DNA from: Acidimicrobiia bacterium
Lineage (GTDB): Bacteria > Actinomycetota > Acidimicrobiia > IMCC26256 > JAMXLJ01
Assembly (NCBI GenBank): GCA_036558745.1
Contig: DATBEZ010000003.1
Location: 196,352 to 260,351, forward strand
Direction: 5' to 3'
Length of the DNA: 64,000 bases
Part shown: piece by piece, positions 36,973-56,675 of the stretch
Layout: each line of letters opens with the position of its first letter
Numbering within the stretch: position 1 is the stretch's first letter
The notes under the pieces: generated by a model
What the model saw: only the letters and a program-made list of their open reading frames with translations
What the model was told of the DNA's origin: nothing
The model's database searches: none
Translations under genes and position numbers: made by a program

Positions 36973-37791
36973 CTACACGCGGCGGAACCGCATCACCGCG
37001 AGCGCGCCGAAGACGACGACGAGCGCGGCGCTCCACACGATCGCTGAGACCACGTCGTACCCGGGTCCGTGACCGAGCACTTCGTGGGCCCGCCCACCCA
37101 GACACAGGCCGCGAACCGCGTCGACCATCGGGGTGATCGGTTGGTGCTCGGCGAATGCCTGCATCCAACCCGGCATGGTGCGCACCTGCACGTACGCGCT
37201 GGACACGAACGTGAGCGGAAAGACGAGCAACGACATCCCCTGTGCCGCTTGCGCGTTCCCCGCGACGAGACCCAACAGGATGAACAACCACGTGAACGCG
37301 AAGCCGAACAACGCGCACAACGCGAAGGCGGCGATACCGGCCGCGACGCTGCCGTGCAAGCGGAACCCTACGGCGAAGCCGATCGCGACCGTGATCGCGA
37401 GGTTCCAGACGAGCATCTGGCTGTCGGCCAGCGCGCGGCCGGCGAGCACGGCGGCACGCGGGATGGGAAGGCTCCGCAACCGGTCCACGAAGCCCTGCTC
37501 GAGATCCTCGGCGATGCCGGCCGCGGTCGACATGCCGACGAAGAGCACCGACGTGGTCACGAAGCCGGGCACGAGGAAGTCGACGTAGGGCACACCGCCG
37601 CCGTTGATCGCTCCGCCGAAGACGTAGCGGAAGATCAACAGGAACATCGCGCCCTGGATGGTGCCCACGACGACGAGCTGGGGCGTGCGCAAGAACTTGC
37701 GGGTCGTGCGTCGCGCCACCGAGCGTGTCGCCCGCAACATCGACGCACCGCGAGCGGCGCCGCGTGTGACGGGAGTGGTGATCGCGGTCAT
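36973..37791 (-). CDS. ABC-2 type transporter permease (DrrB-like)
   Basis: ORF 36973..37791. FLRTPQLVVVGTIQGAMFLLIFRYVFGGAI plus six TM helices. ATGA overlap with the ATPase gene. Confidence 0.85.
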   Translation of the reverse strand: MTAITTPVTRGAARGASMLRATRSVARRTTRKFLRTPQLVVVGTIQGAMFLLIFRYVFGGAINGGGVPYVDFLVPGFVTTSVLFVGMSTAAGIAEDLEQGFVDRLRSLPIPRAAVLAGRALADSQMLVWNLAITVAIGFAVGFRLHGSVAAGIAAFALCALFGFAFTWLFILLGLVAGNAQAAQGMSLLVFPLTFVSSAYVQVRTMPGWMQAFAEHQPITPMVDAVRGLCLGGRAHEVLGHGPGYDVVSAIVWSAALVVVFGALAVMRFRRV

Positions 37792-38846
37792 GCCGAGGTC
37801 CTTTCGAGCGACGTGACGGCGGAGCCGTCGTGATCGGTGGACGCGACGGCGGAGTCGTCGTGATCGGTGGACGCGACGACGGAGTCGTCGGGATCGTCCC
37901 GGTCGCGGTCGAGCACGCGGCCGGTGAGGGCGAGGAACACCTCGTCGAGCGTGGGCCGGCGCAGACTGATGTCGTCGATGGTCACGCGCTCCTCCTCCAG
38001 CGAACGGGCCGCCGCGGTGAGCCGCTCCGTCCCGGCGTCGACCGGCAACGAGACCCGCCGGGTCGGCGCGTCGACGGTCGGCTCGTCGGCGCCGACGCGC
38101 GCGAGCGCGCGTGCAGCTGCCTCCAGATCCGCGGCGTCGCGCGTGTGCACCTCGATCACGTCTCGGCCGGCGCGGGCCTTGAGCTCACCCGGTGTCCCGT
38201 CCGCGACGACGCGGCCGTGATCGACGATCACGATGCGCGCTGCCAGCTGGTCGGCCTCGTCCAGGTACTGCGTCGTCAGCAGCACGTCAGTCCCGCCCGC
38301 GGCCAGGTCGCGGATCGCATCCCAGAGCTCGAGACGACTACGCGGGTCGAGACCCGTGGTCGGCTCGTCGAGCAGGAGCAGACGCGGCGCGCCGGCGAGG
38401 CTCGCGCCGAGGTCGAGACGTCGCCGCTGCCCACCCGAGTAGGTGCGCGCGAGCCGGTCGGCGACGGCATGCAGGCTCAGTTGCTCGATGACCTGCGCAG
38501 CCCGCGCTCGGGACTGCCGGCGGTCGAGCCCGTAGAGGGTCGCGACCATCTCGAGGTTCTCCCGTCCCGTCATCGCGTCCTCGACCGCGGCGTGCTGCCC
38601 GGCCAGGCCGATGAGCGCACGGACCCGCGGCGCCTCGCGCACGACGTCGCGACCGTCGACGAGCACGGTGCCCGAGTCGGGCCGGAGCAGCGTCGCGAGC
38701 GTGCGCACCAGGGTCGTCTTGCCCGCGCCGTTGGGACCGAGGAGGGCGACGACCTGCCCCGGCTCGATCACGAGGTCGAGGCCGGCCAGGGCTTCGACCT
38801 TCCCGAAGCGCTTGGTCACACCCCGGGCGTCGACGATTGCCGTCAT
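37788..38846 (-). CDS. ABC transporter ATP-binding protein (DrrA/daunorubicin-resistance-like) with a repeat-bearing acidic C-terminal tail
   Basis: ORF 37788..38846. Walker A GPNGAGKTT, signature YSGGQRRRLDL, Walker B LLLLDEPTTGLD. The tail is DDSVVASTDHDDSAVASTDHDGSAV. Confidence 0.9.
   Translation of the reverse strand: MTAIVDARGVTKRFGKVEALAGLDLVIEPGQVVALLGPNGAGKTTLVRTLATLLRPDSGTVLVDGRDVVREAPRVRALIGLAGQHAAVEDAMTGRENLEMVATLYGLDRRQSRARAAQVIEQLSLHAVADRLARTYSGGQRRRLDLGASLAGAPRLLLLDEPTTGLDPRSRLELWDAIRDLAAGGTDVLLTTQYLDEADQLAARIVIVDHGRVVADGTPGELKARAGRDVIEVHTRDAADLEAAARALARVGADEPTVDAPTRRVSLPVDAGTERLTAAARSLEEERVTIDDISLRRPTLDEVFLALTGRVLDRDRDDPDDSVVASTDHDDSAVASTDHDGSAVTSLERTSA
37815..37896. repeat. 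30-bp in-frame tandem repeat (2 full copies plus 1 degenerate) in the 3' end of the ABC ATPase gene
   Basis: GACGGCGGAG(C/T)CGTCGTGATCGGTGGACGC at 37815-37844 and 37845-37874 differ by 1 nt. A degenerate third copy follows. They encode ASTDHD(D/G)SAV decapeptides. Confidence 0.85.
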
Positions 38847-38883
38847 GGTTCCTCCCGATCGAGCGCCGTTCGACTTAGATCAT

Positions 38884-38916
38884 TGCTCGCTCTCGATCAT
38901 TGATCGAGAGCGAGCA
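38884..38916. promoter_or_regulatory. 33-bp perfect palindrome, TetR operator candidate for the DrrAB-like pump
   Basis: TGCTCGCTCTCGATCA-T-TGATCGAGAGCGAGCA (16-bp arms). Lies 38 nt upstream of the ABC ATPase start (38846) and 41 nt upstream of TetR GTG 38957. Confidence 0.7.
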
Positions 38917-38956
38917 CCGTTTTACAATCGCGAGGCACAATCGGTCAAGGGATTTC

Positions 38957-39739
38957 GTGGACGAGGAGCCGACGGTGACGGACGACACTCCGAGCGCGGT
39001 GGTCGAGCCGCCGTGGTGGCGTCCGTCGCGCGCGACGGGTCGCCGTCGGCAGCCGCTGTCGCGCGAGCTCATCATCGAGGCCGCTGTGCGCATCCTCGAC
39101 GCCGAGGGCGCCGACGCGCTGACCGTGCGACGGCTCGGCGAGGAGCTGGACACCGGGTCCGCCACCCTCTACTGGTACGTCGGCAGCAAGGACGAGCTCG
39201 GCGAGCTCGTGTACGACCACGTGATGGGCGAGGTCGAGCTCCCCGAGCCGGACCCCGACCGATGGCAGGACCAGATCAAGCAGCTCGGGCGTCAGGCGTA
39301 CCGCGTGATGCTCCGGCACAACGACGCGGTGCGCCTGTCACTCGGTCGTGTCCCGGTCGGGCCGAACATGCTACGGATCATGGAGTGGAGCCTCGAGCTG
39401 TTCCGCCGCGCGGGCATCGACGAGCGCGCGGCGAGCTTCTTCGGCGACATCTTCGGCCGGTATCTCGACGCGTCCGTGCTCGAGGTGACCGCGCACGGAG
39501 GTCCGCCCGTCGAGCAAGTGGGCGCGTACTTCCAGTCGCTGCCGCCCGACCGCTTTCCGAACGTGGCCGCCTTGGCCGCGACGATGACGGGTGGGGACGA
39601 CGACGAGCGCTTCGAGTTCGGGCTCGATCTGCTCGTGCGCGGGCTCGAGACCTACGTCAGCGAGGAACGGAAGAGCCGGGACGCATCCCCGCGCACCCGC
39701 ACGCGACGATCCTCCGGCCGCGCCGGGTCAGGGCGGTGA
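38957..39739 (+). CDS. TetR-family transcriptional regulator
   Basis: In frame of ORF 38900..39739. TTG 38900 sits inside the operator palindrome, so GTG 38957 is preferred. LSRELIIEAAVRILDAEGADALTVRRLGEELDTGSATLYWYVGSKDEL. Confidence 0.8.
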   Translation: MDEEPTVTDDTPSAVVEPPWWRPSRATGRRRQPLSRELIIEAAVRILDAEGADALTVRRLGEELDTGSATLYWYVGSKDELGELVYDHVMGEVELPEPDPDRWQDQIKQLGRQAYRVMLRHNDAVRLSLGRVPVGPNMLRIMEWSLELFRRAGIDERAASFFGDIFGRYLDASVLEVTAHGGPPVEQVGAYFQSLPPDRFPNVAALAATMTGGDDDERFEFGLDLLVRGLETYVSEERKSRDASPRTRTRRSSGRAGSGR

Positions 39740-40187: not shown

Positions 40188-40754
40188 TCAGGATCGGCGG
40201 GAGAGGCGTGTGAGGTCGTCACCTCCATCGGATGATCCGACGGTGATGCGGGGTGATTCTTGCGTGACGAAACGACTCTCGAGCTCGACCCCGTGGACCC
40301 GCCAGTCGTAGACGACCCTGGTTCGGGCGAGCATGTCCGCCCAGCCCCGCCGCTTCGGGTCGAGCGCGACCCAGAGGAACCCGAGCCCGAAGGCCGCGGT
40401 CGAGAGTCCGTAGCCGACCAGGCGGACGAGGGCCCGCGCCCAGCCGACCCGCCCGCCGCTGCGGGCGACGACCCGGAGCCCGAGCACGGCCTTGCCGACG
40501 GTCTTCCCGAACCACCACCACGCGATCCAGAAGTAGAGGAGCGTCCAGGCTCCCAGCAGGATCGGCACGAGCCACGTCGGGATGGCGGCGACGTCGAGCT
40601 GACGGACGCGCAGCACCTGCACCGTCAGCGTTCCGAGCGCGAGCCCGCCATAGAAGGTCGCCGCGATCGCGAGCACATCGATCGTCATCGCGGCCGCCCG
40701 ACTGACGAAACCTGCCGTCGCGCCGGGGCCGCCCGGTGCAACCGGTGACCTCAC
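40188..40754 (-). CDS. RDD-family membrane protein
   Basis: C-terminal part of ORF 40188..41468. GTG 40754 overlaps the upstream TGA (GTGA). AGFVSRAAAMTIDVLAIA...WWWFGKTVGKAVLGLRVV...DPKRRGWADMLARTRVV is the RDD pattern. Confidence 0.8.
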   Translation of the reverse strand: MRSPVAPGGPGATAGFVSRAAAMTIDVLAIAATFYGGLALGTLTVQVLRVRQLDVAAIPTWLVPILLGAWTLLYFWIAWWWFGKTVGKAVLGLRVVARSGGRVGWARALVRLVGYGLSTAAFGLGFLWVALDPKRRGWADMLARTRVVYDWRVHGVELESRFVTQESPRITVGSSDGGDDLTRLSRRS

Positions 40755-41449
40755 CCGGGGGCCGCCGGCACGATCGCGGCACCGTCGGGCGGAACGCGAC
40801 GCTGGGCGCCGCGTCGGCGGAGCGGTGCGAGGATCCGGTCGACGAGCGTGTCGGCGTCGGCGGCGCGGGAACGCGCGACGTCGAGCACCCGGCCCGTCAC
40901 CGTCTCGGTCGACGAGACGATGATGTCGGTGAGCTCGAGACTGGCGATGATGTCGTCGAGCGGCAGCTGCTCGACGACATGGCCCACGTCGAAGCGGTCG
41001 ACGATCACGTCCGTCATCAGGGTCATCGCGTTCACGAGCGTCGCCGCCGCCACGGCCTGACTCCGCTCGCGCTCCGCGGCACCGGCGGCGCGCCACGCCG
41101 CGACCCGCCGGGATACCGGCGCGCGGACGATGACGGGCGTCACCGCGACGATGGTGGTCGGGACGCGCGCGACGGCGCCGGCCGCGGTGCGCGCGACGGT
41201 CGTGAGCGCGCCCGACGGGGGCCGGGCCGCGCCGTCGGTCGGGGGCGCGCCGCCTGTCGTCCCGTCGGGCGCGCCGACGGCCGCGGCACCGTCGAGCAGG
41301 CGCCCCAGGCCGCTTCCCGCGAGGAGGACCGTCCCGAGCGCGACGCGGGTCGCCGCGACGAGGCGCGCGCCGGTCCCGCTCGTCGGCGTCGTATCGGCGG
41401 CGCCGTCCCCTGTGGACAGCGCTTCCCGCGGAGGCCCGTCGGGCTGCAC
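40751..41449 (-). CDS. hypothetical protein with an Ala/Gly/Thr-rich N-terminal half and a conserved-looking acidic C-terminal half
   Basis: ORF 40751..41449 (GTG start). C-terminal VNAMTLMTDVIVDRFDVGHVVEQLPLDDIIASLELTDIIVSSTETVTGRVLDVARSRA looks like real protein. The N-terminal extent is uncertain. Confidence 0.55.
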   Translation of the reverse strand: MQPDGPPREALSTGDGAADTTPTSGTGARLVAATRVALGTVLLAGSGLGRLLDGAAAVGAPDGTTGGAPPTDGAARPPSGALTTVARTAAGAVARVPTTIVAVTPVIVRAPVSRRVAAWRAAGAAERERSQAVAAATLVNAMTLMTDVIVDRFDVGHVVEQLPLDDIIASLELTDIIVSSTETVTGRVLDVARSRAADADTLVDRILAPLRRRGAQRRVPPDGAAIVPAAPG

Positions 41450-41483: not shown

Positions 41484-41500
41484 TCACCCGTTCCGGGTGA
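41484..41500. promoter_or_regulatory. palindrome copy 1: TCACCCgttccGGGTGA
   Basis: Perfect 6+6 arms. Lies 33 nt after the LAL-1 stop and 35 nt upstream of the 232-aa/RDD/small-paralog operon start. Confidence 0.6.
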
Positions 41501-41532: not shown

Positions 41533-44076
41533 TCAGAGCAGTCCGAGCCGGCGCGCGCTGGCGACCGCCTCCTCGCGCGACCCGACGCCGAGCTTGCGGT
41601 AGATGGCCTTGACGTGCGACTTGAGCGTGTTGCGCGAGATGAAGAGCTCGCTCGCGATCTGGGCGCTGTTCCCCGCACCGCCGAGATGTCGGAGCACGAC
41701 GAGCTCACGCTCGCTGAGGGCCGCCGGTGCCGGCGGCGCGGGCCGGATCGTCACGGACGGAGCCCGTTCCTCCCAGAACACGGACGCGTACCGCTCCGGT
41801 TCGGCCAAGCGCACGGCCCGCTCGAGATGGCCCGCCGAGTCCGCCTCGCCCCTCGCGGCGCGGGCGAGGAGCAGCTCCCTGACGATCCGGTCGCGCGTGC
41901 CTTCGGGACGCGTCGCGTCGAGACGGGCCCGCGCCGACGCGGGATCGGCGGCCAGCTCCGCGCGCGCCTGGAGCAGCTCGCGCTCGACGGAAGGCGGGAG
42001 TGTCGCGATGAGCACGGCGGCCCGTTGGAGGTCACCCGTCCTGACGCGGATACGGGCCTCCAGCGCGTCCGCGCGACGGGCGAGCGCGGTCCCTTCCGAA
42101 CGCGCCCCATACGAACGCGCTCGGCCGAGTCGCCACGCGACGTCCTCGAGGTCGTCGCGTCGCCAGGCGAGTTCCGCATGTGCGAGCTCCGCGTGGGTGA
42201 GATGCATGACCGAGTCGAGATCCGCCGCGCGCGCCTCCAACTCCGTGAGCGCGGCTTCGGCGGCAGGTCGCTCGTCGCGCTCGAGGAGGACCCGGACGAG
42301 CGCGAGTTGAGCGTCGAGGACGCCGAAGTGGCCCGCAGGCGCGCTCGGCGCGTGACGGAGCGCGTCGCGTGCGAGCGCCTCCGCGTCCCGCAGCCGATCG
42401 TCTGCCGCCGCGACGTTGGCTCGGATCGCGGGAAGCACGACGAGCGACGCGACGTCCGAGAGCCGATCGCGCTCGCGGAGCAGATCGACCATCGCCTTCG
42501 CGTCCGGAAGTTGGCCGAGGATCAGGTACGAGCGGGCCAGGTTCACCGGCAACCGCTCGAACACGACGTCGTCCCACTCGCGCTCGTCGATGGGAAGCAT
42601 CGGGGCCCCGAGCTCCACCGCGCGTGCGGCATCCCCGCGCAAGGCCGCCAGCTGTGCCCGCATCGCGGCGAGCCGTCGCTCGAGCCCCGGTGCGGCGCCG
42701 TCCTCGACCACGGCCTGGGCCCGTTCGAGCCAGATGAGGGCGTCGGTGAAGCTCGATTGCATGACCAGCGCGACGACCAACCTCGCGATGCGCTGCGGCT
42801 CCGCGCCGACGTAGTCGGGCGGCAGCAGGTCGAGCCAGTCGCTCTGTCCCGAGCGCGTCGAGCGCCCGCGCGGTGCTTCCTCGATCGCGAGGGTGAACGC
42901 GCCGTCGGTGTCTCCTGCGTCGAGCAGATGGCTCACCGCGAGGCGTACGTCGCCCTCGTCACGGAACCACGCGGCCGCGACGGCATGGAGGCGGCGGAGG
43001 CGGTCCGGATCCCGGGCCTCGAGGTCGTTGCACAGGAAGTCGCGGAAGAACTGGTGGTAGCGGAACGATCGGCGGTGCGCGTCGAGGGGGACGAGGAACA
43101 GGCGGCGGTCCTCGATCGTCCGCAGCATCTCCTGCGTGTCGTCCCGCCCCGTCAACGCGCGGCAGAGCTCGACGTCGAACCTCTCGACGACGCAGGTGTC
43201 GCCCAGGAACTCGCGAACCGCGGTCGACTGGAGGCTCAGGACCTCGCGGACGAGGAGATCGGCGACCGCTTCCCGCCCGGTCGACGCATCCGCGTCCGCG
43301 TGCTCCGGACCGCGACGATGCGTCCCGCTCGACGCGAGCGCGGCGAGCTGCAGCCCGGCAACCCATCCCTCTGCTTCGTCCACCAGCGTCGCGAGATCCT
43401 CGTCCGCGAGCTCGACACCCTCGAACGAGGCGAGCAGCGCAGCCGCCTCGTCGCGCCGGAACGCGAGCGCCGACTCCGACACCTCGCCGACGAGGCCCCG
43501 GGCCCGCCACCGCGCGAGTGGGAGCGGCGGGTGCTGCCGCGTGATGAGCACGAACCGGAGCAGCGGCGGCGCGTGCTCGAGGAGCTGCTCGAGCGACCGG
43601 AGGACCCGGCGGTCGTGCACGACGTGCAGGTCGTCGAGCACGAGGACCAGTCGCCGTCGCGCCCGGGCCACGTCGGTGACGAGCGCGCCGACGAAGGCGT
43701 CGTCCGATGCGCCGGACTCGGTCAGCGCGTCGATGGCGCGCCTCGCCACCCCGGGCAGCGCGGCGTCGACGGCGGACAGGACGTCGTACCAGAAGCGCAT
43801 CGGGTGGTCGTCGCTGCGGTCGAACGTGAGCCACGCGACGCGCGAGCCGGCACGCTCGACCCAGTCCCGGACCGCAACCGTCTTTCCCCATCCCGTCTGC
43901 GCGATGACGAGGGTGATGTTCGGTCCCTCGGGTGGGGCCACGAGCGCGTCGAGCCGCGGACGGGCCACGTGGTGCGCGGCGCGCGGAGGCAGCCCGACCG
44001 TGCTCGTGACGCCGCCGGCCGACGCGTGCCCTGCATCGACGTCCATGACGCGCCCGCCGCCGTCGGCTGCGTTCAT
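41533..44076 (-). CDS. LAL-family (large ATP-binding LuxR / MalT-like STAND) transcriptional regulator, copy 1
   Basis: 3' part of the composite ORF 41533..46821. ATG 44076 overlaps the K+ channel stop (ATGA). Walker A AQTGWGKT, Walker B LVLVLDDLHVV, EGWVAGLQLAAL, long TPR-like region. C-terminal LuxR HTH: LSERELVVLRHLGGAGNSAQIASELFISRNTLKSHVKAIYRKLGV. Confidence 0.9.
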   Translation of the reverse strand: MNAADGGGRVMDVDAGHASAGGVTSTVGLPPRAAHHVARPRLDALVAPPEGPNITLVIAQTGWGKTVAVRDWVERAGSRVAWLTFDRSDDHPMRFWYDVLSAVDAALPGVARRAIDALTESGASDDAFVGALVTDVARARRRLVLVLDDLHVVHDRRVLRSLEQLLEHAPPLLRFVLITRQHPPLPLARWRARGLVGEVSESALAFRRDEAAALLASFEGVELADEDLATLVDEAEGWVAGLQLAALASSGTHRRGPEHADADASTGREAVADLLVREVLSLQSTAVREFLGDTCVVERFDVELCRALTGRDDTQEMLRTIEDRRLFLVPLDAHRRSFRYHQFFRDFLCNDLEARDPDRLRRLHAVAAAWFRDEGDVRLAVSHLLDAGDTDGAFTLAIEEAPRGRSTRSGQSDWLDLLPPDYVGAEPQRIARLVVALVMQSSFTDALIWLERAQAVVEDGAAPGLERRLAAMRAQLAALRGDAARAVELGAPMLPIDEREWDDVVFERLPVNLARSYLILGQLPDAKAMVDLLRERDRLSDVASLVVLPAIRANVAAADDRLRDAEALARDALRHAPSAPAGHFGVLDAQLALVRVLLERDERPAAEAALTELEARAADLDSVMHLTHAELAHAELAWRRDDLEDVAWRLGRARSYGARSEGTALARRADALEARIRVRTGDLQRAAVLIATLPPSVERELLQARAELAADPASARARLDATRPEGTRDRIVRELLLARAARGEADSAGHLERAVRLAEPERYASVFWEERAPSVTIRPAPPAPAALSERELVVLRHLGGAGNSAQIASELFISRNTLKSHVKAIYRKLGVGSREEAVASARRLGLL

Positions 44077-44819
44077 GCCGGCCCGCTGCCGCGTACGGTG
44101 TCCTCCGCTGCCGGCGACGGGGTGGCGAGACGTCGATGACCGATCGCGCCGACGAGCACGGCAACGACGGTCACGAGATAGATCTGGCCGAGCAGCGCCT
44201 CCATCACCGCGGACGCACGACCGAATCCGCCCGCAGCGGTGAGGTCGCCGTACCCGACCGTGGTCAGTGTGATGAAGCTGAAGTACAGGTAGTCCGAGAT
44301 CGTCGCGTGGTTCACCTGTGCGAAGAACGGGTTGCTGCCCAGGGTGCCGATCGCCGCGTAGACGAACGCGAACAGCATGCCGATGAGAACGTAGACGCAC
44401 AGCGCGCCGAGCACGGTGCGCACGTCGATGACCGCTCGCCGGATCAGGCCGCGGACGATCATGACGGGCGCCACGCCGACGAGCAACGCGCTCACGAGGA
44501 AATAGGCACCCCTCAGCGCGTCGCTCCCCTCGCCCCACGGCAAGGCGGCGATGAGCAGCAACGTGAACACGGCCATCACCACGCCGACGATGCGCACCGT
44601 GCGGGCATGGACGCGGGACGCACCCATCGCGACGAGGAGGGTCAGCTCCTGGAGCACGATGACCACGAGTCGCGCCCAGGCCTGGGTCGGCGCCGCCACC
44701 GAGACCACGTACGTCACCATCAGGAGCAGGAGCACGAGGCCGTAGCGGTACCCGGGAAGGCGACCCTCGAGGCTGCGAAGGCGCGGGTCCGACACTGGTC
44801 GCGTGACGTCCGTCGTCAT
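44073..44819 (-). CDS. potassium channel protein (TVGYGD selectivity filter)
   Basis: C-terminal 248 aa of ORF 44073..45374, from ATG 44819. Multiple TM helices. Pore region: ISDYLYFSFITLTTVGYGDLTA. Confidence 0.85.
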   Translation of the reverse strand: MTTDVTRPVSDPRLRSLEGRLPGYRYGLVLLLLMVTYVVSVAAPTQAWARLVVIVLQELTLLVAMGASRVHARTVRIVGVVMAVFTLLLIAALPWGEGSDALRGAYFLVSALLVGVAPVMIVRGLIRRAVIDVRTVLGALCVYVLIGMLFAFVYAAIGTLGSNPFFAQVNHATISDYLYFSFITLTTVGYGDLTAAGGFGRASAVMEALLGQIYLVTVVAVLVGAIGHRRLATPSPAAEDTVRGSGPA

Positions 44820-44929
44820 CCCTCGACCGGCGGGCAGCCGCCCACGGCGCTCCTCCTCGACCGCAGCGCCTGCGGATGGGAACCGTTCCCTGCGCCACCC
44901 GAGGCTGCCCGAGCCTCTGCACAGGGGCA

Positions 44930-44946
44930 TCACCCGCGACGGGTGA
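44930..44946. promoter_or_regulatory. palindrome copy 2: TCACCCgcgacGGGTGA
   Basis: Perfect arms. Sits in the 271-bp divergent gap between K+ channel/LAL-1 (start 44819) and LAL-2 (start 45091). Confidence 0.6.
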
Positions 44947-45090
44947 ACAGATCGCGAGCCCGAGCCGTGATCGGAATCGACGAAGGTTCCGCGGCGGTCT
45001 TGTTGCGAACTCGACTGCGCACCCCCACCCGTGGTGCGTCCGTTGTGATGTCGCGTCGGTGCTTGACAGAAGGTGGGATCCACGCCGACC

Positions 45091-47733
45091 ATGAACAACT
45101 TGGTCCCAACACGCCGAGCGGGCGCACCGGGCGCCGCGATCGAACTGAAGCTGGCTCCACCGCCGCCCCCTCGGCACCACGTCACACGTCCGCGGGTGAC
45201 CGCGCGCTTCCCGGCGGCCGACGGCGGCCGGCTCACGCTCGTCACGGGGCCCCCCGGGGCGGGGAAGACGACGGCGGTCCAGGAGTGGCTGCACGCGACC
45301 GGCCGTCGCGCCGCGTGGCTGACGCTCGACATCGACGACAACGCCGCGCCGGCGTTCTGGCGCGACGTGCTCACGGCGGTGCGACAGGTGACGCGCGCAT
45401 CGCCGGCCCGCGCATCGCCGCGCGACGTCGTGCCCCGGCACGCGTCGTTGGATCACGTCCTCACGGAGCTGGACGCGCTGGACGACGAGCTGGTGCTGGT
45501 CCTCGACGACTTCCACGTCGTGCACGCGCGTGCGGTCCATGGAGACGTCCGGTCGCTCCTCGAGCGCAAGCCACCTGCGCTTCACGTCGTGCTCGTCAGC
45601 CGGTCCGATCCCGCGTTGCCTCTCGCGCGCTGGCGCGTGCGCGACGAGCTCGTGGAGATCCGCGAGGCCGACCTCCGGTTCGACGCGGAAGAGGCGGGCG
45701 CGTACCTGGGCGCATTCGAAGATCTGCAGCTCGACGACCGCGCGGTGTCGACGCTCGCGCGGCGGACCGAGGGCTGGATCGCCGGGCTGCAGCTCGCGGT
45801 CATCTCGCTCCGCGCGAGCGACGACCGGGACACCTTCATCGAGAGCTTCGGTGGCACGGACCGCTTCATCGCGGATTTCCTGCTCGACGAGGTTCTCGGC
45901 GGCCAGCCGGACGACATCCGCGAGTTCCTGCTGCTGACTTCGGTGCTCCCCCGGTTCGACGCGCAGCTCTGCGAGGCGGTGACCGGACGGTCCGACGCGG
46001 ACGCCCAGCTTCGCCGCCTCGAGGCCGCGAACCTCTTCCTGGTACGCGCCGACTCGGCCGGAACCTCGTTCCGGTACCACAGCCTCTTCCGTGACCTCTT
46101 GCGCTCGGAGCTCGAGACTCGTGACCCGGAACGCGCGCGGGCGGCGCGCGCCGAGGCCGCGTGGCAGCTGGCCCGCGCCGACGACACGCTTGCCGCAGTC
46201 GAGCTCCTCGTCGCGGCGGGAAAGCACGAGGAGGCCTTCGCGCTCGCGCTCCCTCGTCAGGCCGAGCTCACCCCGGCGGCCCGCGTCACGACGAGCAGTT
46301 GCCTCGATCTGCTGCCCGCCTCGTTCGTCGCGCGTGACCGCGAGCGTTCGCTCCTCTACGCCGACGCGTTGCGCAAGATCGGTCGCCAGGACGACGCCGC
46401 GGTGTGGCTCGAGCGCGCGTCGCTGGCCATCGAACCCGACGGCACCGACGCCGCTGAGCAGAACCGGACCGAGGCGCTCTGGATCGCGTGGTATGCCGCG
46501 GAGGGAGACGCGCACGCGTCGGTCAACCACGCCCATCGGGCGAGACGCGTCGCCGCCGGCGCGGGTTCTTCGGCGGTTCGAGACCGCATCGCCGACGGCG
46601 TCCAGCTGGATCTTGCACGCGCGTGGCTCCTCCTGGGCAACTTCGACCGCGCGCGGCGATCGTTGGCCAGGGTGTCGCGTGACGTGGACCCTGTCGTCGA
46701 CGAGGTCGCGGTACCCGCGGTGCTCGCTCGCGTGCAGGCCGGCGAGGGACGGCTCCGCGACGCGGAGGTGAGCGCCGAACGGGCGCTGCGCATGGCCGCC
46801 GCGCTGGACGTCGGCGGTCATCCGGCGACGATGGACGCGCTCCTCGCTCGGGCCGCGCTCGGGCGCGAGCGCGACGACCTCATCGGGGCCACGCGCGACG
46901 TGGACGAGGCGTTCGCGCTCGCGGAGGACCTCGCGTCACCGCCGTACCGGGTCCTGACGCGGCTCGAGCACGTGCGGAACGTGGAGGCGGTGGCCGGTCC
47001 GCACGACGCGCTCGAGCACCTGCGCGCGGTGCGCGCCGCGTTCGGCGACCCCCGTCCACCGGCGCTCCTCGACGCCACGAACCGGGTCGACGTCAGGCTG
47101 TCGATGCGTTGCGGCGATCTCTCCCGCGCCGCGCTCGTCGCCGGGACGCTCCCCGTCGGCTTCGGCCGCGAGCTGCTCCTGGCCGGGATCGAGGTCGGCG
47201 AGGGCCGCAGCGGCCGCGCGCGTCGACGGCTCGCCGCGCTCCAGCCCGTGTACCTCGGGGACCGGATCCGCCACGAGCTGCTCCGCGGCACCGCGGCGGA
47301 GCGCCTCGACGAGCTCCGGCGCCACGTCAGCCGTGCGGCCGAGCTCGCGGCGCCGGAAGGGTTCCGGCGGACGTTCATCGAGTGCGGCCCGGGCGTGTCA
47401 CGCGCGCTGCGCTCGCTCGCCTCCTCCCCGCGGCTGCACCCGATGACGATCGACCTCGTGCGCGCGGTGGTGGACCTCCCCGCGCTCCGTGCCGGCCGGA
47501 CCCTCCTCGAGCCGCTGAGCGAGCGCGAAGAGTCGGTGCTCAGGTACTTCCCGACGACGCTGAGCTACCACGACATCGCGACCGAGCTGCTGATCTCGGT
47601 CAACACGCTGAAGACCCACGTGCGCAGCATCCACCGCAAGCTGGGCGTGTCCTCGCGCGCCGAGGCGATCCGCCAGGCCGAAGCGCTGGGGATGTTGAGC
47701 CGCACCGGGGGCACTCGCCGCGCGACGGGATGA
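45091..47733 (+). CDS. LAL-family (MalT-like STAND + LuxR HTH) transcriptional regulator, copy 2
   Basis: ORF 45073..47733 (GTG 45073 or ATG 45091). Walker A GPPGAGKT, Walker B LVLVLDDFHVV, EGWIAGLQLAVI. HTH: LSEREESVLRYFPTTLSYHDIATELLISVNTLKTHVRSIHRKLGV. Clearly paralogous to copy 1. Confidence 0.9.
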   Translation: MNNLVPTRRAGAPGAAIELKLAPPPPPRHHVTRPRVTARFPAADGGRLTLVTGPPGAGKTTAVQEWLHATGRRAAWLTLDIDDNAAPAFWRDVLTAVRQVTRASPARASPRDVVPRHASLDHVLTELDALDDELVLVLDDFHVVHARAVHGDVRSLLERKPPALHVVLVSRSDPALPLARWRVRDELVEIREADLRFDAEEAGAYLGAFEDLQLDDRAVSTLARRTEGWIAGLQLAVISLRASDDRDTFIESFGGTDRFIADFLLDEVLGGQPDDIREFLLLTSVLPRFDAQLCEAVTGRSDADAQLRRLEAANLFLVRADSAGTSFRYHSLFRDLLRSELETRDPERARAARAEAAWQLARADDTLAAVELLVAAGKHEEAFALALPRQAELTPAARVTTSSCLDLLPASFVARDRERSLLYADALRKIGRQDDAAVWLERASLAIEPDGTDAAEQNRTEALWIAWYAAEGDAHASVNHAHRARRVAAGAGSSAVRDRIADGVQLDLARAWLLLGNFDRARRSLARVSRDVDPVVDEVAVPAVLARVQAGEGRLRDAEVSAERALRMAAALDVGGHPATMDALLARAALGRERDDLIGATRDVDEAFALAEDLASPPYRVLTRLEHVRNVEAVAGPHDALEHLRAVRAAFGDPRPPALLDATNRVDVRLSMRCGDLSRAALVAGTLPVGFGRELLLAGIEVGEGRSGRARRRLAALQPVYLGDRIRHELLRGTAAERLDELRRHVSRAAELAAPEGFRRTFIECGPGVSRALRSLASSPRLHPMTIDLVRAVVDLPALRAGRTLLEPLSEREESVLRYFPTTLSYHDIATELLISVNTLKTHVRSIHRKLGVSSRAEAIRQAEALGMLSRTGGTRRATG

Positions 47734-47746: not shown

Positions 47747-47763
47747 TCACCCCGCGTGGGTGA
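47747..47763. promoter_or_regulatory. palindrome copy 3: TCACCCcgcgtGGGTGA
   Basis: Perfect arms (extendable to ATCACCC/GGGTGAT). Lies 14 nt after the LAL-2 stop and 79 nt upstream of the 84-aa gene. A second hairpin, TGATGTGGgagaCCACATCA, follows immediately at 47761-47780. Confidence 0.55.
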
Positions 47764-47841: not shown

Positions 47842-48096
47842 ATGCAGGACGCTCGGGACCTGATCGACGTCGCACGACCGACCGTGCCGGCCGACGACCG
47901 TGAGGCGCTGCGGGTCACGCAGACCGTCGGAAGGCTGGTCGACCGCTTCGGCGACATGGTCGCGCCCGAGTTCCTCGAAGCGCGGGTGCGCGCGCTCTAT
48001 GCCACGTTCGACCGCGCGCAGGTGCGCGAGTTCGTCCCCATCCTCGTGGAGCGCGAGGTCATGAGGGAGCTTGCCGCGCTCCGTCGGCGTCCGTAG
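47842..48096 (+). CDS. small three-helix-bundle-type protein (resembles the dimerisation domain found N-terminal to some actinobacterial LMW phosphatases/ArsC)
   Basis: ORF 47842..48096. ATG follows GGGAGG. VGRLVDRFGDMVAPEFLEARVRALYATFDRAQVREFVPILVEREVMRELA. The family call is from memory of the ...FVP.LVER..R..L pattern. Confidence 0.6.
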   Translation: MQDARDLIDVARPTVPADDREALRVTQTVGRLVDRFGDMVAPEFLEARVRALYATFDRAQVREFVPILVEREVMRELAALRRRP

Positions 48097-49456
48097 CACC
48101 TGCCGCCGCGTGCCCGTTCGTGCCGTCGGGTGCGCCCCCACGCACGAGATCCCACAGCGCGGCGAACGTCGCCCCGTCGAGACGGACGTCCGGCGCTCGC
48201 GGATTCGCCCCCGGCGCGCTCGGCGCGAGCCAGACCCGCAGCGCGCCCGGCCGCATCCGGAAGCGGATCGGGGGATCGAGACGGACGGACTCTCCGTCGA
48301 TGCCGGCAGGCACGGGTCCGTCGGCGTCGACCTCGAACTCCTCGGTCGCCCACATGGCGCAACCCGGGAAGTCGCGTGCACGACCGGCGAGCTGCAGGGC
48401 GGTGAAGCGTGCCGCGTCCGCCGCGTCGGCGACGGCGACGCTGACGACGCCGAGCCTCCCCGTGTCGAGTCGCGGGCGCTTCCCGAACCCTCCGATGCCG
48501 CTGAGCTCGTAGGGGTTGTTGGAGACGAGCACGAGATCGCGCGTCGATCGGGGCGACCCGTCGGGGCCGCGGAAGCGCAGCTCGGCCGCGGTCGCCTCCG
48601 GCCCGATCAGATCGGGCAACATCGCGGCCGCCGTCTGCACCTTCGCGTCGCGGTACTCGTCCGACTGCACGATCTCGCCGTACACCCCGAACGACACGTT
48701 GTTGACGAACACGCGGTCGTCGACGAGGCCGACGTCGACCCGGTGCTCGGGGCCCTCCGCGAACGCGTCGAGCGAGCCGACGACGTCGTTCCGGTCGACG
48801 CCGAGGTCGAGCGCCAGGTGGTTGCGGGTACCCGCCGGAATGCAGACGAACGGCAACCCGTGCTCGATCGCGATCGACGCGACGATGGCCTGGGAGCCGT
48901 CGCCGCCGGCGACGCCGAGCGCGTCGGCGCCGCGCGCGATCGCCGCGAGCACGAGCGTCCGCAGGTCGTCACCCCGCTCCAGGAGGATCGCCTCGATCCC
49001 CCGCCGCCGTGCCTCCTCGACCAGGTTGAACCGTCCGACCTTGCCGCCGCCCGACTTCGGGTTCATGAACACGACCGGATGCCCGGCGGTGCGGCGCATC
49101 GTTGCGGCGGTCGGCAACGCGACCCGACGCGGGCTGAGCGCGAACCGACCGAGCAAGAGCGCGACGACGAGGAGAACCGCGATGAGCACCACATCGCGGA
49201 GCGCGCGGGTCGACGGGAGCACCACGAAGAACGCCGCGACAACAGTGAGCGCGGCGAGCGCCGCGACGATCGCCCCTGCGAGGCGTGTTGCCCCGCGACG
49301 CGTGATCGCGAGCCATCCGGCCGCGCTCATCACGACGAGCGCCACGACCGTGACGAGGAGCAGCACCAGATGCGTCACCGCGAACACGATCGCGAGCACC
49401 GGCGCGACGACGAGAGCGAACAGGGCCGCGGCCGCGGCCACCCGTCGGAGCATCAC
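48059..49456 (-). CDS. diacylglycerol-kinase-family lipid kinase with an N-terminal multi-TM domain
   Basis: ORF 48059..49456. About 4 TM helices, then VVFMNPKSGGGK...GVAGGDGSQAIVASIAIEHGLPFVCIPAGTRNHLALDLG (DAGK catalytic domain). Confidence 0.85.
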   Translation of the reverse strand: MMLRRVAAAAALFALVVAPVLAIVFAVTHLVLLLVTVVALVVMSAAGWLAITRRGATRLAGAIVAALAALTVVAAFFVVLPSTRALRDVVLIAVLLVVALLLGRFALSPRRVALPTAATMRRTAGHPVVFMNPKSGGGKVGRFNLVEEARRRGIEAILLERGDDLRTLVLAAIARGADALGVAGGDGSQAIVASIAIEHGLPFVCIPAGTRNHLALDLGVDRNDVVGSLDAFAEGPEHRVDVGLVDDRVFVNNVSFGVYGEIVQSDEYRDAKVQTAAAMLPDLIGPEATAAELRFRGPDGSPRSTRDLVLVSNNPYELSGIGGFGKRPRLDTGRLGVVSVAVADAADAARFTALQLAGRARDFPGCAMWATEEFEVDADGPVPAGIDGESVRLDPPIRFRMRPGALRVWLAPSAPGANPRAPDVRLDGATFAALWDLVRGGAPDGTNGHAAAGATDADGARQAPS

Positions 49457-49510
49457 CGCGATCGTGCAGCGAGCGCGCTCGGGTGACGTCCTCCCGAGCG
49501 GGTGAAAGCG

Positions 49511-49693
49511 TCAGATGCCGATGGCCGAAGCGAGTCGCGTCGCGGAACGCTGCACCAACGGCACGACGACGATGCCGGCCAGCGCGCCGACCAGCCGGTT
49601 CGTCCGCCGCGCGACGTAGGCGCCGACCGCGGCGCCGACCGCCACGCCGATGATCTCGGCGGCGAGACTGGCCTCGTCGGTCGTCGTGCTCAT
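49511..49693 (-). CDS. small (60 aa) membrane protein, hypothetical
   Basis: ORF 49511..49693. GC3 is near saturation. Two hydrophobic stretches (IIGVAVGAAVGAYVA, LVGALAGIVVVPLV). Confidence 0.5.
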   Translation of the reverse strand: MSTTTDEASLAAEIIGVAVGAAVGAYVARRTNRLVGALAGIVVVPLVQRSATRLASAIGI

Positions 49694-49756
49694 CGCCGCT
49701 CCCCCACTGACCCGGTCAGAAGCAATGCCCCGGAGCGAGGTGCGGCTCCGGCAGCG

Positions 49757-49957
49757 TCAGTCCATCCTCGCGCGCAGGCGGCGCCAGACATGACCTGCCT
49801 CGAGCAGCATCCAGAGACCGATGACGACGACCCAGGCCACGGCGATGGCGAGGCGCACGGCCCGGGACCGCGAAGCCGCCTGGTGGGCGGCGGCCGACGT
49901 GCGCGCGCCCGCCGCCTGGGGTCGGGCGGGACGTTCGGCGGTGACGACGGGACCCAT
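49757..49957 (-). CDS. small (66 aa) membrane protein, hypothetical
   Basis: ORF 49757..49957. High GC3. One TM (LAIAVAWVVVIGLWMLL). Lies 64 nt downstream of palindrome copy 50021-50037. Confidence 0.45.
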   Translation of the reverse strand: MGPVVTAERPARPQAAGARTSAAAHQAASRSRAVRLAIAVAWVVVIGLWMLLEAGHVWRRLRARMD

Positions 49958-50020
49958 GCCCAGCCTCCTCTGTCGCGGGCTCGGACACTCGGAGGGTGCG
50001 GGAGCGCGGTGGTCACGTCG

Positions 50021-50037
50021 TCACCCGGCAGGGATGA
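50021..50037. promoter_or_regulatory. palindrome copy 4 (1 mismatch): TCACCCggcagGGATGA
   Basis: Lies between the MFS stop (50052) and the start of the small-TM/small-TM/DAGK gene string (49957). Confidence 0.45.
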
Positions 50038-50051
50038 TCCGCCGCGAGCGG

Positions 50052-51506
50052 TCAGGCCGGCTCCGGCGTCCTGATCTGCTCACGGGGCAGACGGAGCGCG
50101 GCGACGAGACCGGCGAGCGTGATGACCATCATGACGACGAGGGCCGCGGCGAAGTGCTTGTTGATCACCGTGGACACGAGCACCGAGCCGACGAGCGCGG
50201 TGCCGAGCGACGATCCGAGATTCGAGATGCTCCGCGAGAGACCGGAGATCTCGCCCTGGTCCTTCTCGGGGAACGCCGACTGCACGACGTTGACCGACGC
50301 CGTGAGCATGATCCCGATCGCGAGCCCGATCACCAGCAGCCCCGGCACGAACGCGAGGATGTTCGAGTGAGCGCGCGCGAACAGCAGCAGGAGGCCCATT
50401 CCGGCCGCGTTCCCGGCGAAGCCGACCCAGATGAGCGTGCGCTGCGGGCGGCGCTGCGCCAGCCGTCCCGCGGCCGCGGACGACACGAGCAGCCCGATCG
50501 TCGAGGGGGTGAGCGCCAGCCCAGTCTCGATCGCGCTGAACCCCCGCACGGTCTGCAGGAACACCGAGACGACGAACGAGGTGCCCTGGAGCGTGAGCCA
50601 CTGGATCAGCTGGGTCGTCAGCCCGAGATTCGCGACGTGGTTGCGGAACAGGCGCGTCGAGAGGAGCGGCTCGCGCCCCTTGCGTTCGTCGGAACGGATG
50701 TGCACGAAGAACCACGCGAGGAGGACCGCTCCGGCCACGACGAAGACCCAGACCGGCGAGACGCCGCCCTCGTGGATCAGGACCGTGTCGCCGACCTTCC
50801 AGTCCGCACGCGACTTCAGCCAGCCGAACGTGCGACTCTCCAGCACACCGATCACGATCAGCACCAGGCCGGCGGCCGAGAGGATCGTCCCCATCACGTC
50901 GAAGCGCGAGGGCGTCGGGGCCGGGTGATCGTCGGGCACGCGTCGAGCGAGGTAGATCACCGCGAGCACGATCGCGATCTGGAGTCCGAACGACGCGCGC
51001 CAGCTGATGGCCGTCGTGATCAGGCCCCCGATGAGCGGGCCCGCTGCGGCGCCGATCCCCGCTGCGCCGCTGACCGCGCCGAAGTACTTCGCCCGGCTCT
51101 TCACGTCGGGGAACATGACCGTGACGAGGATGTAGATCGGCGGGATGAGCAAGGCCGACCCGATCCCCTCGAGGAGCGAGTAGCCGACGACGAGGACGCC
51201 GATGCCCTGCGCGAGCGCCGCGATCAGTGCTCCCGCCCCGTATACGACGAGACCGATGAGGAAGCAACGCTTGCGACCCCATCGGTCGGTCAGCTTGCTG
51301 CCCGGGATCATCAGCGCGGCCATCGTCAGCGTGAACAACGTGATCGCGGTCTGAACACCGCTGACGTCGGTGCCGATGTCCTTCGCGATGCTGTTGATCG
51401 CGACGTTCATGTTCGTGCACGCGTAGCTCGCGACGAACTGCGCGAGCGCGAGCGGAAAGACCGCGGCCCACGGTGAGAACGTCGTCCTCTGCTCGGATGT
51501 CGCCAT
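50052..51506 (-). CDS. MFS transporter (DHA2/EmrB-QacA-like, 14-TM type)
   Basis: ORF 50052..51506. LTDRWGRKRCFLIGLVVYGAGALIAALA and many TM helices. Confidence 0.9.
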   Translation of the reverse strand: MATSEQRTTFSPWAAVFPLALAQFVASYACTNMNVAINSIAKDIGTDVSGVQTAITLFTLTMAALMIPGSKLTDRWGRKRCFLIGLVVYGAGALIAALAQGIGVLVVGYSLLEGIGSALLIPPIYILVTVMFPDVKSRAKYFGAVSGAAGIGAAAGPLIGGLITTAISWRASFGLQIAIVLAVIYLARRVPDDHPAPTPSRFDVMGTILSAAGLVLIVIGVLESRTFGWLKSRADWKVGDTVLIHEGGVSPVWVFVVAGAVLLAWFFVHIRSDERKGREPLLSTRLFRNHVANLGLTTQLIQWLTLQGTSFVVSVFLQTVRGFSAIETGLALTPSTIGLLVSSAAAGRLAQRRPQRTLIWVGFAGNAAGMGLLLLFARAHSNILAFVPGLLVIGLAIGIMLTASVNVVQSAFPEKDQGEISGLSRSISNLGSSLGTALVGSVLVSTVINKHFAAALVVMMVITLAGLVAALRLPREQIRTPEPA

Positions 51507-51537
51507 CGCCGCGACCTCGCTCGGCGTGGAGCCCCGT

Positions 51538-53382: not shown

Positions 53383-53465
53383 GGCCACTCCTCGTGTCGC
53401 GTCGAGAGGGGATCGCGCAGACAACCGAACGTGCTCGACGCTCGCAGACTCCGAGCGTCGCCCCA

Positions 53466-53482
53466 TCATCCCGGCGGGGTGA
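53466..53482. promoter_or_regulatory. palindrome copy 5 (1 mismatch): TCATCCcggcgGGGTGA
   Basis: Sits in the divergent gap between GH15-MFS (start 53382) and the PLDc_N-SHOCT gene (start 53643). Confidence 0.45.
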
Positions 53483-53642
53483 AAGCGCTCGCACCGTCCG
53501 CCCGACGGGTGCCCGCCGACGCGCGAATCGCCCGCTGTGGGGGATGGCCGCGATGAGGAAACCGATCACCCTGGCTGCGGTACGAGGTGGAGCGGGACTT
53601 ATCCGGTTCCCCCGATGAGGGGACGAGTTGGAGGAAGCAGTC

Positions 53643-54047
53643 GTGACGCTTGCAGCAGATTGGGGATCCGGCCAGGTCCTGTTGTCGATGCTGTGGTTCT
53701 TCCTGTTCTTCGTGTGGATCTGGCTCTTGATCGTCGTCTTCGCGGACATCTTCCGCAGCCCCGACATGGGCGGGTGGGCGAAGGCACTGTGGACGATCTT
53801 CGTCATCGTGATGCCGTACCTGGGCGTGTTCATCTACTTGATCGCCCGCGGCCACAAGATGGGTGAGCACGCGGCGCAGCAGGCACAGGCCCAGGACGCG
53901 GCGTTTCGCGCCTACGTGAAGGACGCGGCCGGCAACGGCTCGAGCAGCCCGGCGGCCGAGCTCGACCGGCTCGCCGACCTCAAGGCGCGCGGCGTGATCG
54001 ACGACGCCGAGTTCACGCGCCTGAAGGCAAAGGTCGTCAGCGCCTGA
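53643..54047 (+). CDS. PLD-nuclease-N-terminal-type (PLDc_N) membrane domain + SHOCT domain protein
   Basis: In frame of ORF 53628..54047 (TTG). GTG 53643 is 7 nt after GGAGGA. LWFFLFFVWIWLLIVVFADIFRSPDMGGWAKALWTIFVIVMPYLGVFIYLIARG, then C-terminal ELDRLADLKARGVIDDAEFTRLKAKV (SHOCT). Confidence 0.8.
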   Translation: MTLAADWGSGQVLLSMLWFFLFFVWIWLLIVVFADIFRSPDMGGWAKALWTIFVIVMPYLGVFIYLIARGHKMGEHAAQQAQAQDAAFRAYVKDAAGNGSSSPAAELDRLADLKARGVIDDAEFTRLKAKVVSA

Positions 54048-54072
54048 TCCCTCTGGGGCGTTGACCAAGGCG

Positions 54073-54114
54073 CCCGGCGCGATGTGGTGAGTCCCGCTCC
54101 CACATCGCGCCGGG
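54073..54114. terminator. stem-loop between convergent PLDc_N-SHOCT and PPK2 genes
   Basis: CCCGGCGCGATGTGG-(12 nt)-CCACATCGCGCCGGG, a perfect 15-bp stem. Confidence 0.6.
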
Positions 54115-54166
54115 TTCGTCGCGCGCATCACCCGGTTCGGTCGATAGGCGCGCGCGGCGACCGGCG

Positions 54167-55626: not shown

Positions 55627-55646
55627 GATGGCTCCTCGTCGTCCGG

Positions 55647-55931: not shown

Positions 55932-56024
55932 GGACACCCCACTCCTTCGGCGGCCTCGACGACGGGCACGAGAGTCCCACTCGTGCACGGTGTGCATCGC
56001 ATCGCGCGCGCGACGGGTGCGACA

Positions 56025-56041: not shown

Positions 56042-56058
56042 ACCTCCGGTTCGGGCGT

Positions 56059-56659: not shown

Positions 56660-56675
56660 CCGACGGGAGGTTGCC

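Follow-up and report, generated by a model that had tools for sequence, protein, structure and literature searches.

A 6.2-kb stretch of DNA, positions 41533-47733 of a 64,000-nucleotide window (the whole stretch analysed, from contig DATBEZ010000003.1 of assembly GCA_036558745.1), is probably the regulatory heart of an island under MalT-type control, in a bacterium that has a high GC content and resembles the Acidimicrobiia, an assignment we make with fair though not firm confidence. It holds two regulators of the large ATP-binding LuxR family (LAL), with a K+ channel gene between them. The channel gene (44073-44819, minus strand) ends in a stop codon that overlaps the start of LAL-1 (41533-44076, minus strand), while LAL-2 (45091-47733, plus strand) is divergent from the channel across a gap of 271 bp (44820-45090), and in that gap lies a 17-bp palindrome that matches a published MalT-type operator. 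The explanation we judge better than even is that the K+ channel is one target gene of a MalT-type LAL regulon, with LAL-1 riding on the channel transcript in an autoregulatory loop. The operator and the island type are already known from Actinoplanes, and the regulators belong to the LAL/MalT family; new are the TVGYGD K+ channel as the gene between two LALs, a dedicated LAL orthogroup joined to the channel by a conserved stop/start overlap, and the occurrence of such an island system in a different actinobacterial class from Actinoplanes.

Both regulators are MalT-like STAND proteins, of 847 amino acids in the case of LAL-1 and 880 in that of LAL-2. Each has an N-terminal P-loop NTPase region matching Pfam AAA_22 and AAA_16, with a Walker A motif (GPPGAGKT in LAL-2; AQTGWGKT in LAL-1, whose GWGKT form resembles the GYGKT of MalT), a shared Walker B motif LVLVLDD, and a GerE helix-turn-helix scoring 47.4 and 47.6 bits against a cut-off of 23.5. 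The WHD_MalT and TPR_MalT domains are precomputed matches on proteins identical or orthologous to the two LALs; our own search with the TPR_MalT profile gave 37.3 bits, below the 45-bit cut-off. Residues 18-358 of LAL-2 match the MalT fragment in PDB entry 8bob (E = 1.8e-42), and LAL-2 aligns over its full length with Escherichia coli MalT at 26% identity (E = 4e-48); the order of P-loop NOD, winged-helix arm, TPR-like sensor and LuxR helix-turn-helix is common to both. The NCBIfam MalT equivalog was matched at 294.5 and 291.1 bits, against a cut-off of 537 and over the N-terminal half only, and the proteins are therefore MalT-like LALs rather than MalT itself. No mal genes occur among the neighbours of the LALs in the window, and as judged from sequence these are not true orthologs of MalT in the sense of a maltotriose-responsive mal activator. 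Pathway-specific LALs of actinomycetes such as PikD, RapH and NysRI are likewise large ATP-binding LuxR-family proteins encoded within the gene set they control, and often paired, but they serve secondary-metabolite clusters, whereas the genes here concern membrane, ion and stress functions and are preceded by a MalT-type operator.

An earlier note on this DNA had called LAL-1 and LAL-2 paralogs on the strength of shared sequence blocks. The paralogy stands, the two being 37% identical end to end (E = 3e-117), although one of the blocks cited, ALPLARWR, is exact in LAL-2 only and reads PLPLARWR in LAL-1. Outside their own orthologs they are mutually closest relatives, and they fall into two clean orthogroups: LAL-1 orthologs share 43-78% identity among themselves, LAL-2 orthologs 48-85%, and members of different groups 34-39%. 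That each group is the nearest relative of the other is what a gene duplicated long ago next to the channel would give.

The gene between the LALs encodes a channel of 248 amino acids with six transmembrane helices (6TM) and a TVGYGD selectivity filter, as recognized from its translation, Pfam, an AlphaFold2 model and Foldseek. It matches Pfam Ion_trans_2 at 41.9 bits (cut-off 22.5), and the filter sequence TLTTVGYGD is invariant across 28 homologs. The model built on those homologs (pLDDT 78.5, pTM 0.72) places helices at residues 24-42, 47-67, 72-95, 100-126 and 133-160, a pore helix at 174-186 and a last helix at 199-231, that is, four transmembrane helices followed by S5, pore helix and S6, with short tails only. 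The best Foldseek neighbours were the 6TM K+ channels Slo1, hERG and AKT1, with probabilities of 0.99-1.0, the same matches being weak by E value (0.01-0.06) and TM-score (0.38-0.47). Helix 4 ends in VRGLIRRAVIDVR and carries few charges. Inspection of the sequence and of Pfam matches found no RCK or CNBD domain in the channel, nor any other ligand-binding or cytoplasmic domain, and among the aligned homologs the N- and C-terminal tails are short and variable and hold no motif specific to LAL-linked channels. A reading of the locus as an anti-phage STAND protein (Avs-like) with a membrane effector was rejected, as both LALs carry a helix-turn-helix and PADLOC offered no support, giving no match for LAL-1 or the channel and only a marginal one for LAL-2, within the helix-turn-helix region.

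At the junction of channel and LAL-1 the letters 'tcat' at 44073-44076 read ATGA on the minus strand, where the TGA of the channel (44075-44073) overlaps an ATG (44076-44074) that is in frame with the 847-amino-acid open reading frame (ORF) ending at 41533. The earlier note had described this overlap, as well as the divergent LAL-2 and the 271-bp gap with its palindrome at 44930-44946, and sequence and translation bear out its account. There is zero intergenic space between the two genes, and they would form an operon with coupled translation, presumably transcribed together; a scan for sigma-70 consensus promoters and terminators was uninformative in sequence of 71% GC. Our literature search turned up no paper describing a channel-LAL operon. 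The earlier note had called the pairing unfamiliar, yet Actinoplanes offers a precedent in which two LALs flank a membrane-protein gene, one not annotated as a channel.

The relatives with which the locus (here with L numbers for the loci compared) could be set side by side are metagenomic contigs or metagenome-assembled genomes (MAGs) only. A first survey, by alignment of channel homologs, yielded 80 species-representative loci in which the nearest channel was 59% identical; a LAL stood directly downstream of the channel in 0 of the 80. The impression of an unconserved adjacency that this gave was dropped when closer relatives emerged through exact-protein look-ups of the closest channel homologs, which supplied loci L083-L090. 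There a LAL lies on one side and the channel followed by a LAL on the other, with the 4-nt overlap at the junction: it is kept in L083-L085 (metagenome contigs, channel identity 79%), in L087 (MAG GCA_035651955.1, 66%), in L088/L089 (MAG GCA_024281095.1, 62%) and in L090, a cut metagenome contig (65%) that retains a partial LAL-1 ortholog. L086 departs from this layout, for its channel (69%) and LAL-2 (60%) occur without LAL-1 and a different gene follows the channel. Among 5.8 billion proteins there are only five clusters of LAL-1 orthologs (P0121-P0125, at 100, 78, 76, 50 and 50% identity), beyond which identity to LAL-1 falls from 50% to 38%. All five clusters, together with the partial ortholog of L090, come immediately after a channel gene and share an [A/G]TGA overlap with it, in six lineages across which channel identity is 62-79% and LAL-1 identity 49-78%. 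A LAL-2 ortholog is found on the other side of the channel wherever the contig extends far enough, and is divergent from it in L086, L087, L088, L095, L096 and L099. The earlier note had held that an adjacency confined to this genome would refute its proposal; with conservation in six lineages, that refutation fails. A metagenome scan with LAL-1 as query returned only three loci, all distant or irrelevant.

The overlap also bears on where LAL-1 begins. The junction reads ATGA or GTGA in the window and in every relative that has it (L083/L085/L097, L095, L087/L096, L088/L089 and L090). In L087/L096 the overlapping GTG is the sole in-frame start ahead of a conserved ARPRLD block; in L090 the only alternative lies at +69, and the alternative at +30 occurs only in the window and its closest relatives. 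A start at ATG 44046 with a promoter of its own, which had been named as the other possible refutation, was on these grounds set aside in favour of 44076, if not with strict certainty for this genome. Overlaps of 4 nt are in themselves common, being found in about 3 of 9-10 same-strand neighbour pairs in the annotated L087 and L088. It is the conservation of the overlap at this junction that exceeds chance, while the overlap as such is routine, and the 'stoichiometric pairing' that the earlier note drew from it does not follow.

Given the abundance of LAL genes, one may ask whether they merely landed beside the channel, the adjacency being a historical accident without any functional link. LAL homologs do occur within 10 kb of the channel, in varied position and orientation, at 19 of the 80 species-representative loci, showing how common such proximity is. 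Persistence of the three-gene layout and its 4-nt junction over six lineages, down to 62% identity in the channel and 49% in LAL-1, and retention of a shared operator in the gap in those relatives whose upstream region was read, make an accident highly improbable. In two more distant loci, L091 and L001, the channel is 59-60% identical and no LAL lies within 8-10 kb; the gene calls available for L091 put a diacylglycerol-kinase gene immediately upstream of the channel. As the kinase adjoins the channel there and sits beyond LAL-2 in the window, the LALs look like insertions around a pre-existing kinase-channel neighbourhood. On the short contig L098 (231-3219) a LAL-2-like gene, 48% identical, follows the C-terminal end of an ORF that runs on the same strand, carries GerE and is probably a further LAL arranged in tandem with it; neither channel nor operator was seen on that contig, so LAL-2-like genes are not always beside a channel.

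The palindrome provides the link to a known regulatory system. Its consensus, TCA[C/T]CC-N5-GG[G/A]TGA (TCAYCC-N5-GGRTGA), spans 17 bp, and in Actinoplanes sp. SE50/110 Droste et al. 2020 (PMC7567727) found the motif TCATCC-5nt-GGATGA at 17 promoters, where it overlaps the -35 region, with its 3' end 34.4 +/- 1.0 nt from the transcription start (PMC7567727). Deletion or overexpression of ACSP50_3915, a MalT-like LAL, affected 40 of 51 genes of the Actinoplanes island, and the authors relate the half-site to the core of the E. coli MalT box, GGA(T/G)GA (PMC7567727). That core equals one half-site of the palindrome here, although MalT boxes are direct repeats and the site here is palindromic, and the targets here are not maltose-utilisation genes. 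The recognition helix is near-identical in E. coli MalT (TIKTHIRNLYQKLGV), LAL-2 (TLKTHVRSIHRKLGV) and LAL-1 (TLKSHVKAIYRKLGV); that of LAL-3, a third LAL in the window, differs (TVKSQAIAIYRKLAV).

The pattern occurs three times in the window against 0.04 expected, and a tolerant scan (at most one mismatch) turns up seven sites whose spacer is 5 nt, confined to 41.4-56.1 kb, and one with a 6-nt spacer at 60002, compared with a mean of 1.3 in shuffled sequence for a looser scan (any spacer of 4-7 nt). The earlier note was thus right that copies are present but had implied a smaller family. From the gap copy (TCACCCGCGACGGGTGA, 44930-44946) it is 111 nt to the ATG of the channel and 145 nt to that of LAL-2. 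Two further putative operators adjoin the LAL genes, one 33 nt past the LAL-1 stop and upstream of a 232-amino-acid ORF (TCACCCGTTCCGGGTGA, 41484-41500), the other 14 nt past the LAL-2 stop and upstream of an 84-amino-acid ORF (TCACCCCGCGTGGGTGA, 47747-47763). The remainder are at 50021-50037 (TCACCCGGCAGGGATGA, from the tolerant scan), at 53466-53482 (TCATCCCGGCGGGGTGA) between a GH15 gene (minus) and a SHOCT gene (plus), and at 56025-56041 and 56059-56075, between a SHOCT ORF (minus) and a 173-amino-acid ORF (plus); the related palindrome with a 6-nt spacer (TCACCCACAGTGGGGTGA, 60002-60019) is upstream of LAL-3. The first 41 kb of the window contain none. G+C content is 69-74% along the whole window, a composition in which real reading frames stand out by their third-position GC (GC3), and each site is upstream of a high-GC3 ORF.

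Relatives share this enrichment and placement. There are nine perfect sites in 16.9 kb of L088 and five in L087, where base composition predicts about 0.004 per 17 kb. The site is kept upstream of the channel in the relatives that were read (L083/L084, L086, L087/L096, L088, L090 and L095) and also in L091 and L001, both without an adjacent LAL; it stands some 74-137 nt upstream and in constant orientation (L083, L086, L090, L096, L091, L001). Among the species-representative loci a palindrome precedes the channel in 7 of 78, L001 included, against about 0.8 expected from site density; in these loci and in L091, that is to say away from any adjacent LAL, its distance from the channel is about 100-137 nt. 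LAL genes in L007, L018 and L051 begin 35-37 nt from their own site, as leaderless transcripts would under the 34-nt rule of Actinoplanes. Copies are often seen at both ends of a LAL gene, 35-37 nt before its start and a few tens of nucleotides after its stop (L007, L018, L051 at about 14,700-17,040, L025 at 7176, and the window at 41484 and 47747), and the copy after the stop probably serves the next gene. A terminator or repetitive extragenic palindromic (REP)-like hairpin was rejected as an identity for the palindrome, for it has no T-run, and the sequence of its arms, beyond their pairing, is conserved in distant lineages in pre-genic positions. Sites of the CRP, BldD or DosR type were dropped because half-site orientation and spacing do not fit; the MalT-type motif does so exactly.

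The Actinoplanes island (MRLGR) resembles the present one in more than its palindromic operator. Its LALs ACSP50_3915 and ACSP50_3917 flank a 'membrane protein' gene, ACSP50_3916, and it holds SHOCT, DUF1269, DUF308, diacylglycerol-kinase, MFS and glucosidase genes, to which the islands of its relatives add DUF2252 and one or two ppk2 genes (PMC7567727). Two LALs flanking a membrane-protein gene, many small membrane proteins, and the SHOCT, DUF2252, diacylglycerol kinase, MFS, glucosidase, DUF308 and, in relatives, PPK2 families are common to both; the comparison of cargo was made at the level of annotation and Pfam and denotes family likeness, not orthology. The differences are that the Actinoplanes island belongs to the Micromonosporaceae and this one to an Acidimicrobiia-like class, that half-sites here are mostly TCACCC/GGGTGA, that a K+ channel stands here where ACSP50_3916 is an unnamed membrane protein, and that one LAL is here joined to the channel operon by a stop/start overlap. 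To judge from its annotation and from its homologs, which are labelled 'hypothetical' or 'membrane protein', ACSP50_3916 is probably no K+ channel.

How these parts might work together we infer as follows. The gap palindrome would be the operator for the LuxR-type helix-turn-helix of LAL-1, LAL-2 or both. Switched on by ATP plus an inducer, by analogy with MalT, a LAL would bind it and so activate the channel-LAL-1 transcript and, in the opposite direction, probably LAL-2. Its further targets would be the other operator-preceded units between 41 and 60 kb, namely the 232-amino-acid ORF with its RDD gene, the 84-amino-acid ORF, the GH15-MFS pair, the two SHOCT genes, the 173-amino-acid ORF with DUF2252, and possibly LAL-3. 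LAL-1, with no intergenic space of its own, would be produced only along with transcription and translation of the channel message, and a positive feedback loop would result. The channel would then be cargo of the regulon, one among several membrane and stress proteins, and not its sensor. The match of the palindrome to an operator of MalT type known from the literature makes ordinary transcriptional regulation of the channel gene by the LALs the simpler reading.

Several points weigh against it. The proposed binder of the palindrome is extrapolated from a different actinobacterial class; a perfect site lies within 260 nt upstream of only 3 of 18 other surveyed LAL genes; and a single site would need to serve two divergent promoters. 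With the site 111 and 145 nt from the two starts, the 34-nt rule calls for 5' untranslated regions of about 77 and 111 nt. Operators are also present in L091 and L001, with no LAL within 8-10 kb, so the binder there is encoded elsewhere or is a different protein. Finally, simple co-regulation would not call for a linkage to the channel as exclusive as that of the LAL-1 orthogroup.

The operators of L091 and L001, which stand before the channel and many of its neighbours, lead to the possibility that the palindrome is bound by another regulator, either a LAL encoded elsewhere or a member of another family, and that LAL-1 and LAL-2 are regulon members with targets of their own, linked to the channel by shared membership. 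With three LAL paralogs in the window the assignment of site to protein is ambiguous, and of the two LALs in the Actinoplanes island just one showed a strong effect (PMC7567727). We nevertheless consider another binder rather doubtful, as LAL-1 and LAL-2 have a recognition helix much like the one in E. coli MalT, with its box core GGA(T/G)GA, and the same motif in Actinoplanes precedes genes shown by deletion and overexpression to depend on a MalT-like LAL. Palindromes moreover bracket LAL genes in several unrelated loci and are denser where a LAL is present, at 1.38 per 10 kb in LAL-bearing loci against 0.48 in LAL-less ones.

The exclusive linkage leads in another direction, towards LAL-1 as a STAND regulator dedicated to the channel and set by contact with it or by the K+ or membrane-potential state that it reports, with translational coupling delivering LAL-1 beside the nascent channel. 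All five LAL-1 clusters and the partial ortholog of L090 occur only directly after a channel, with the overlap conserved and a sharp drop in identity, from 50% to 38%, outside the group; the channel, moreover, lacks a ligand-binding domain. Control of a MalT-family regulator by a membrane transport protein has a precedent, the nearest for the idea, in the sequestration of E. coli MalT by the resting MalFGK2 transporter via MalK (PMC6906923). The partner in that case is a cytoplasmic ABC ATPase subunit with a mapped interface, whereas the putative partner here, a minimal 6TM channel, has hardly any cytoplasmic mass. An interaction surface is not apparent: the channel tails are short, variable and free of any LAL-linked motif, and alignment of orthologs shows the LAL-1 N-terminus to be unconserved ahead of residue ~30. 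LAL-1 is missing from L086, where channel and LAL-2 persist, most channel homologs stand without a neighbouring LAL (0 of the 80 species representatives have one directly downstream), 4-nt overlaps are routine in these genomes, and the exclusive linkage is equally explained if LAL-1 merely has no promoter of its own. We regard a channel-set regulator as quite unlikely. The earlier note's suggestion that the regulator senses, or is gated by, channel state or K+ is thus left unsupported by a channel lacking a cytoplasmic domain or LAL-linked tail motif, and is further weakened by L086 and by the channel homologs of LAL-less lineages, which carry the same palindrome upstream.

Upstream of the channel a candidate ORF of nine codons (44816-44845, minus strand) can be read, as GAGGAGGAG-N4-GTG GGC GGC TGC CCG CCG GTC GAG GGA TGA, in which GAGGAGGAG is a ribosome-binding site and the TGA and the start codon of the channel together form ATGA; that start codon lacks a ribosome-binding site at good spacing. 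Five lineages, some with LALs and some without, show this layout of a good ribosome-binding site, 8-18 codons and a TGA that overlaps the start of the channel (the window, L083, L086, L087/L096 and L091/L001). The sequence of the peptide varies among them, and in L083 there is a 3-nt indel that preserves the frame. This recurrence suggests that coupled translation is relayed from the upstream ORF to the channel and on to LAL-1, with translation of the small ORF itself predicted. Under a stronger version of the channel-set scheme, LAL-1 orthologs would be obligate partners of a minimal 6TM K+ channel that gates them, itself or via the K+/voltage state, with the relay setting the amounts of each; to this version we give little credence. 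If it were true, an ion channel would be the input device of a STAND regulon switch, in parallel to MalK-MalT, and the strict linkage of channel and LAL-1 makes the locus a concrete test case for a STAND regulator that takes ion-channel input.

The LAL regulon that we favour would take in much of the surrounding gene content. Downstream of LAL-1 the 232-amino-acid ORF (40751-41449, minus; GC3 0.92; no family match) has a GTG start at 41449, which is 35 nt from the operator at 41484-41500 and coincides with the predicted transcription start, and it is probably leaderless and a regulon target. Its downstream neighbour is an RDD-family membrane protein gene (40188-40688, minus; Pfam RDD, E = 8.5e-19; called on the near-identical contig L081), and homologs of the ORF adjoin RDD genes in L095, L088 and L001; the transcript is likely to be LAL-dependent and to run on into the RDD gene. 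On the other side, the 84-amino-acid ORF (47842-48096, plus; GC3 0.88; no Pfam match) follows LAL-2. Such an ORF of 84-92 amino acids always comes after LAL-2 on the same strand, with its own operator copy between the two genes (L095 486-740, L086 489-767, L088 ~4735-4896, L099 3499-3762).

The Pfam matches identify a diacylglycerol-kinase-like gene just beyond LAL-2 (DAGK_cat; 48059-49456, minus) and, farther along, a GH15/TREH_N glycosidase gene (51538-53565, minus) followed by an MFS transporter gene (50052-51596, minus), a PLDc_N/SHOCT small membrane protein gene (53619-54047, plus), a polyphosphate kinase 2 (PPK2) gene (54167-55300, minus) and a second SHOCT ORF (55647-55997, minus). The true start of the GH15 gene is probably at or below 53424, downstream of the operator at 53466. 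The 173-amino-acid ORF (56138-56659, plus) and a DUF2252 gene (56676-58121, plus) come next, and then LAL-3, an AAA-plus-GerE regulator by Pfam (60066-62327, plus). A neighbourhood of GH15/TREH_N, MFS, diacylglycerol kinase, PPK2, SHOCT, DUF2252, DUF308 and RDD genes, with operators ahead of most transcription units, recurs around the channel (window 48059-58121, L088, L091), and L087, L088 and L091 add DUF308, a lysyl-phosphatidylglycerol-synthase-like gene, an aquaporin and a CLC channel. A K+ channel amid a GH15 trehalase-like enzyme, PPK2 and diacylglycerol kinase, with aquaporin, CLC channel and the synthase-like gene in relatives, hints at a physiology of ion, osmotic or membrane stress and not maltose use.

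The island extends the sole experimentally studied actinobacterial MalT-type regulon, that of Actinoplanes, to a distant and uncultured class, and the same operator with largely the same cargo in so distant a class points to an old, conserved LAL-controlled programme. For Acidimicrobiia MAGs the operator also offers a means of predicting which genes belong to the regulon and where leaderless starts lie.

Two neighbouring arrangements may be added. The TGA of LAL-3 (62325-62327) is separated by a 3-nt gap from the GTG at 62331 of a SulP/STAS anion permease gene, making this a second LAL-plus-transporter operon (60002-63998). Outside the operator-bearing region, a DrrA-like ABC-transporter ATPase gene (37788-38879, minus) is divergent from a TetR-family regulator gene (38879-39739, plus).

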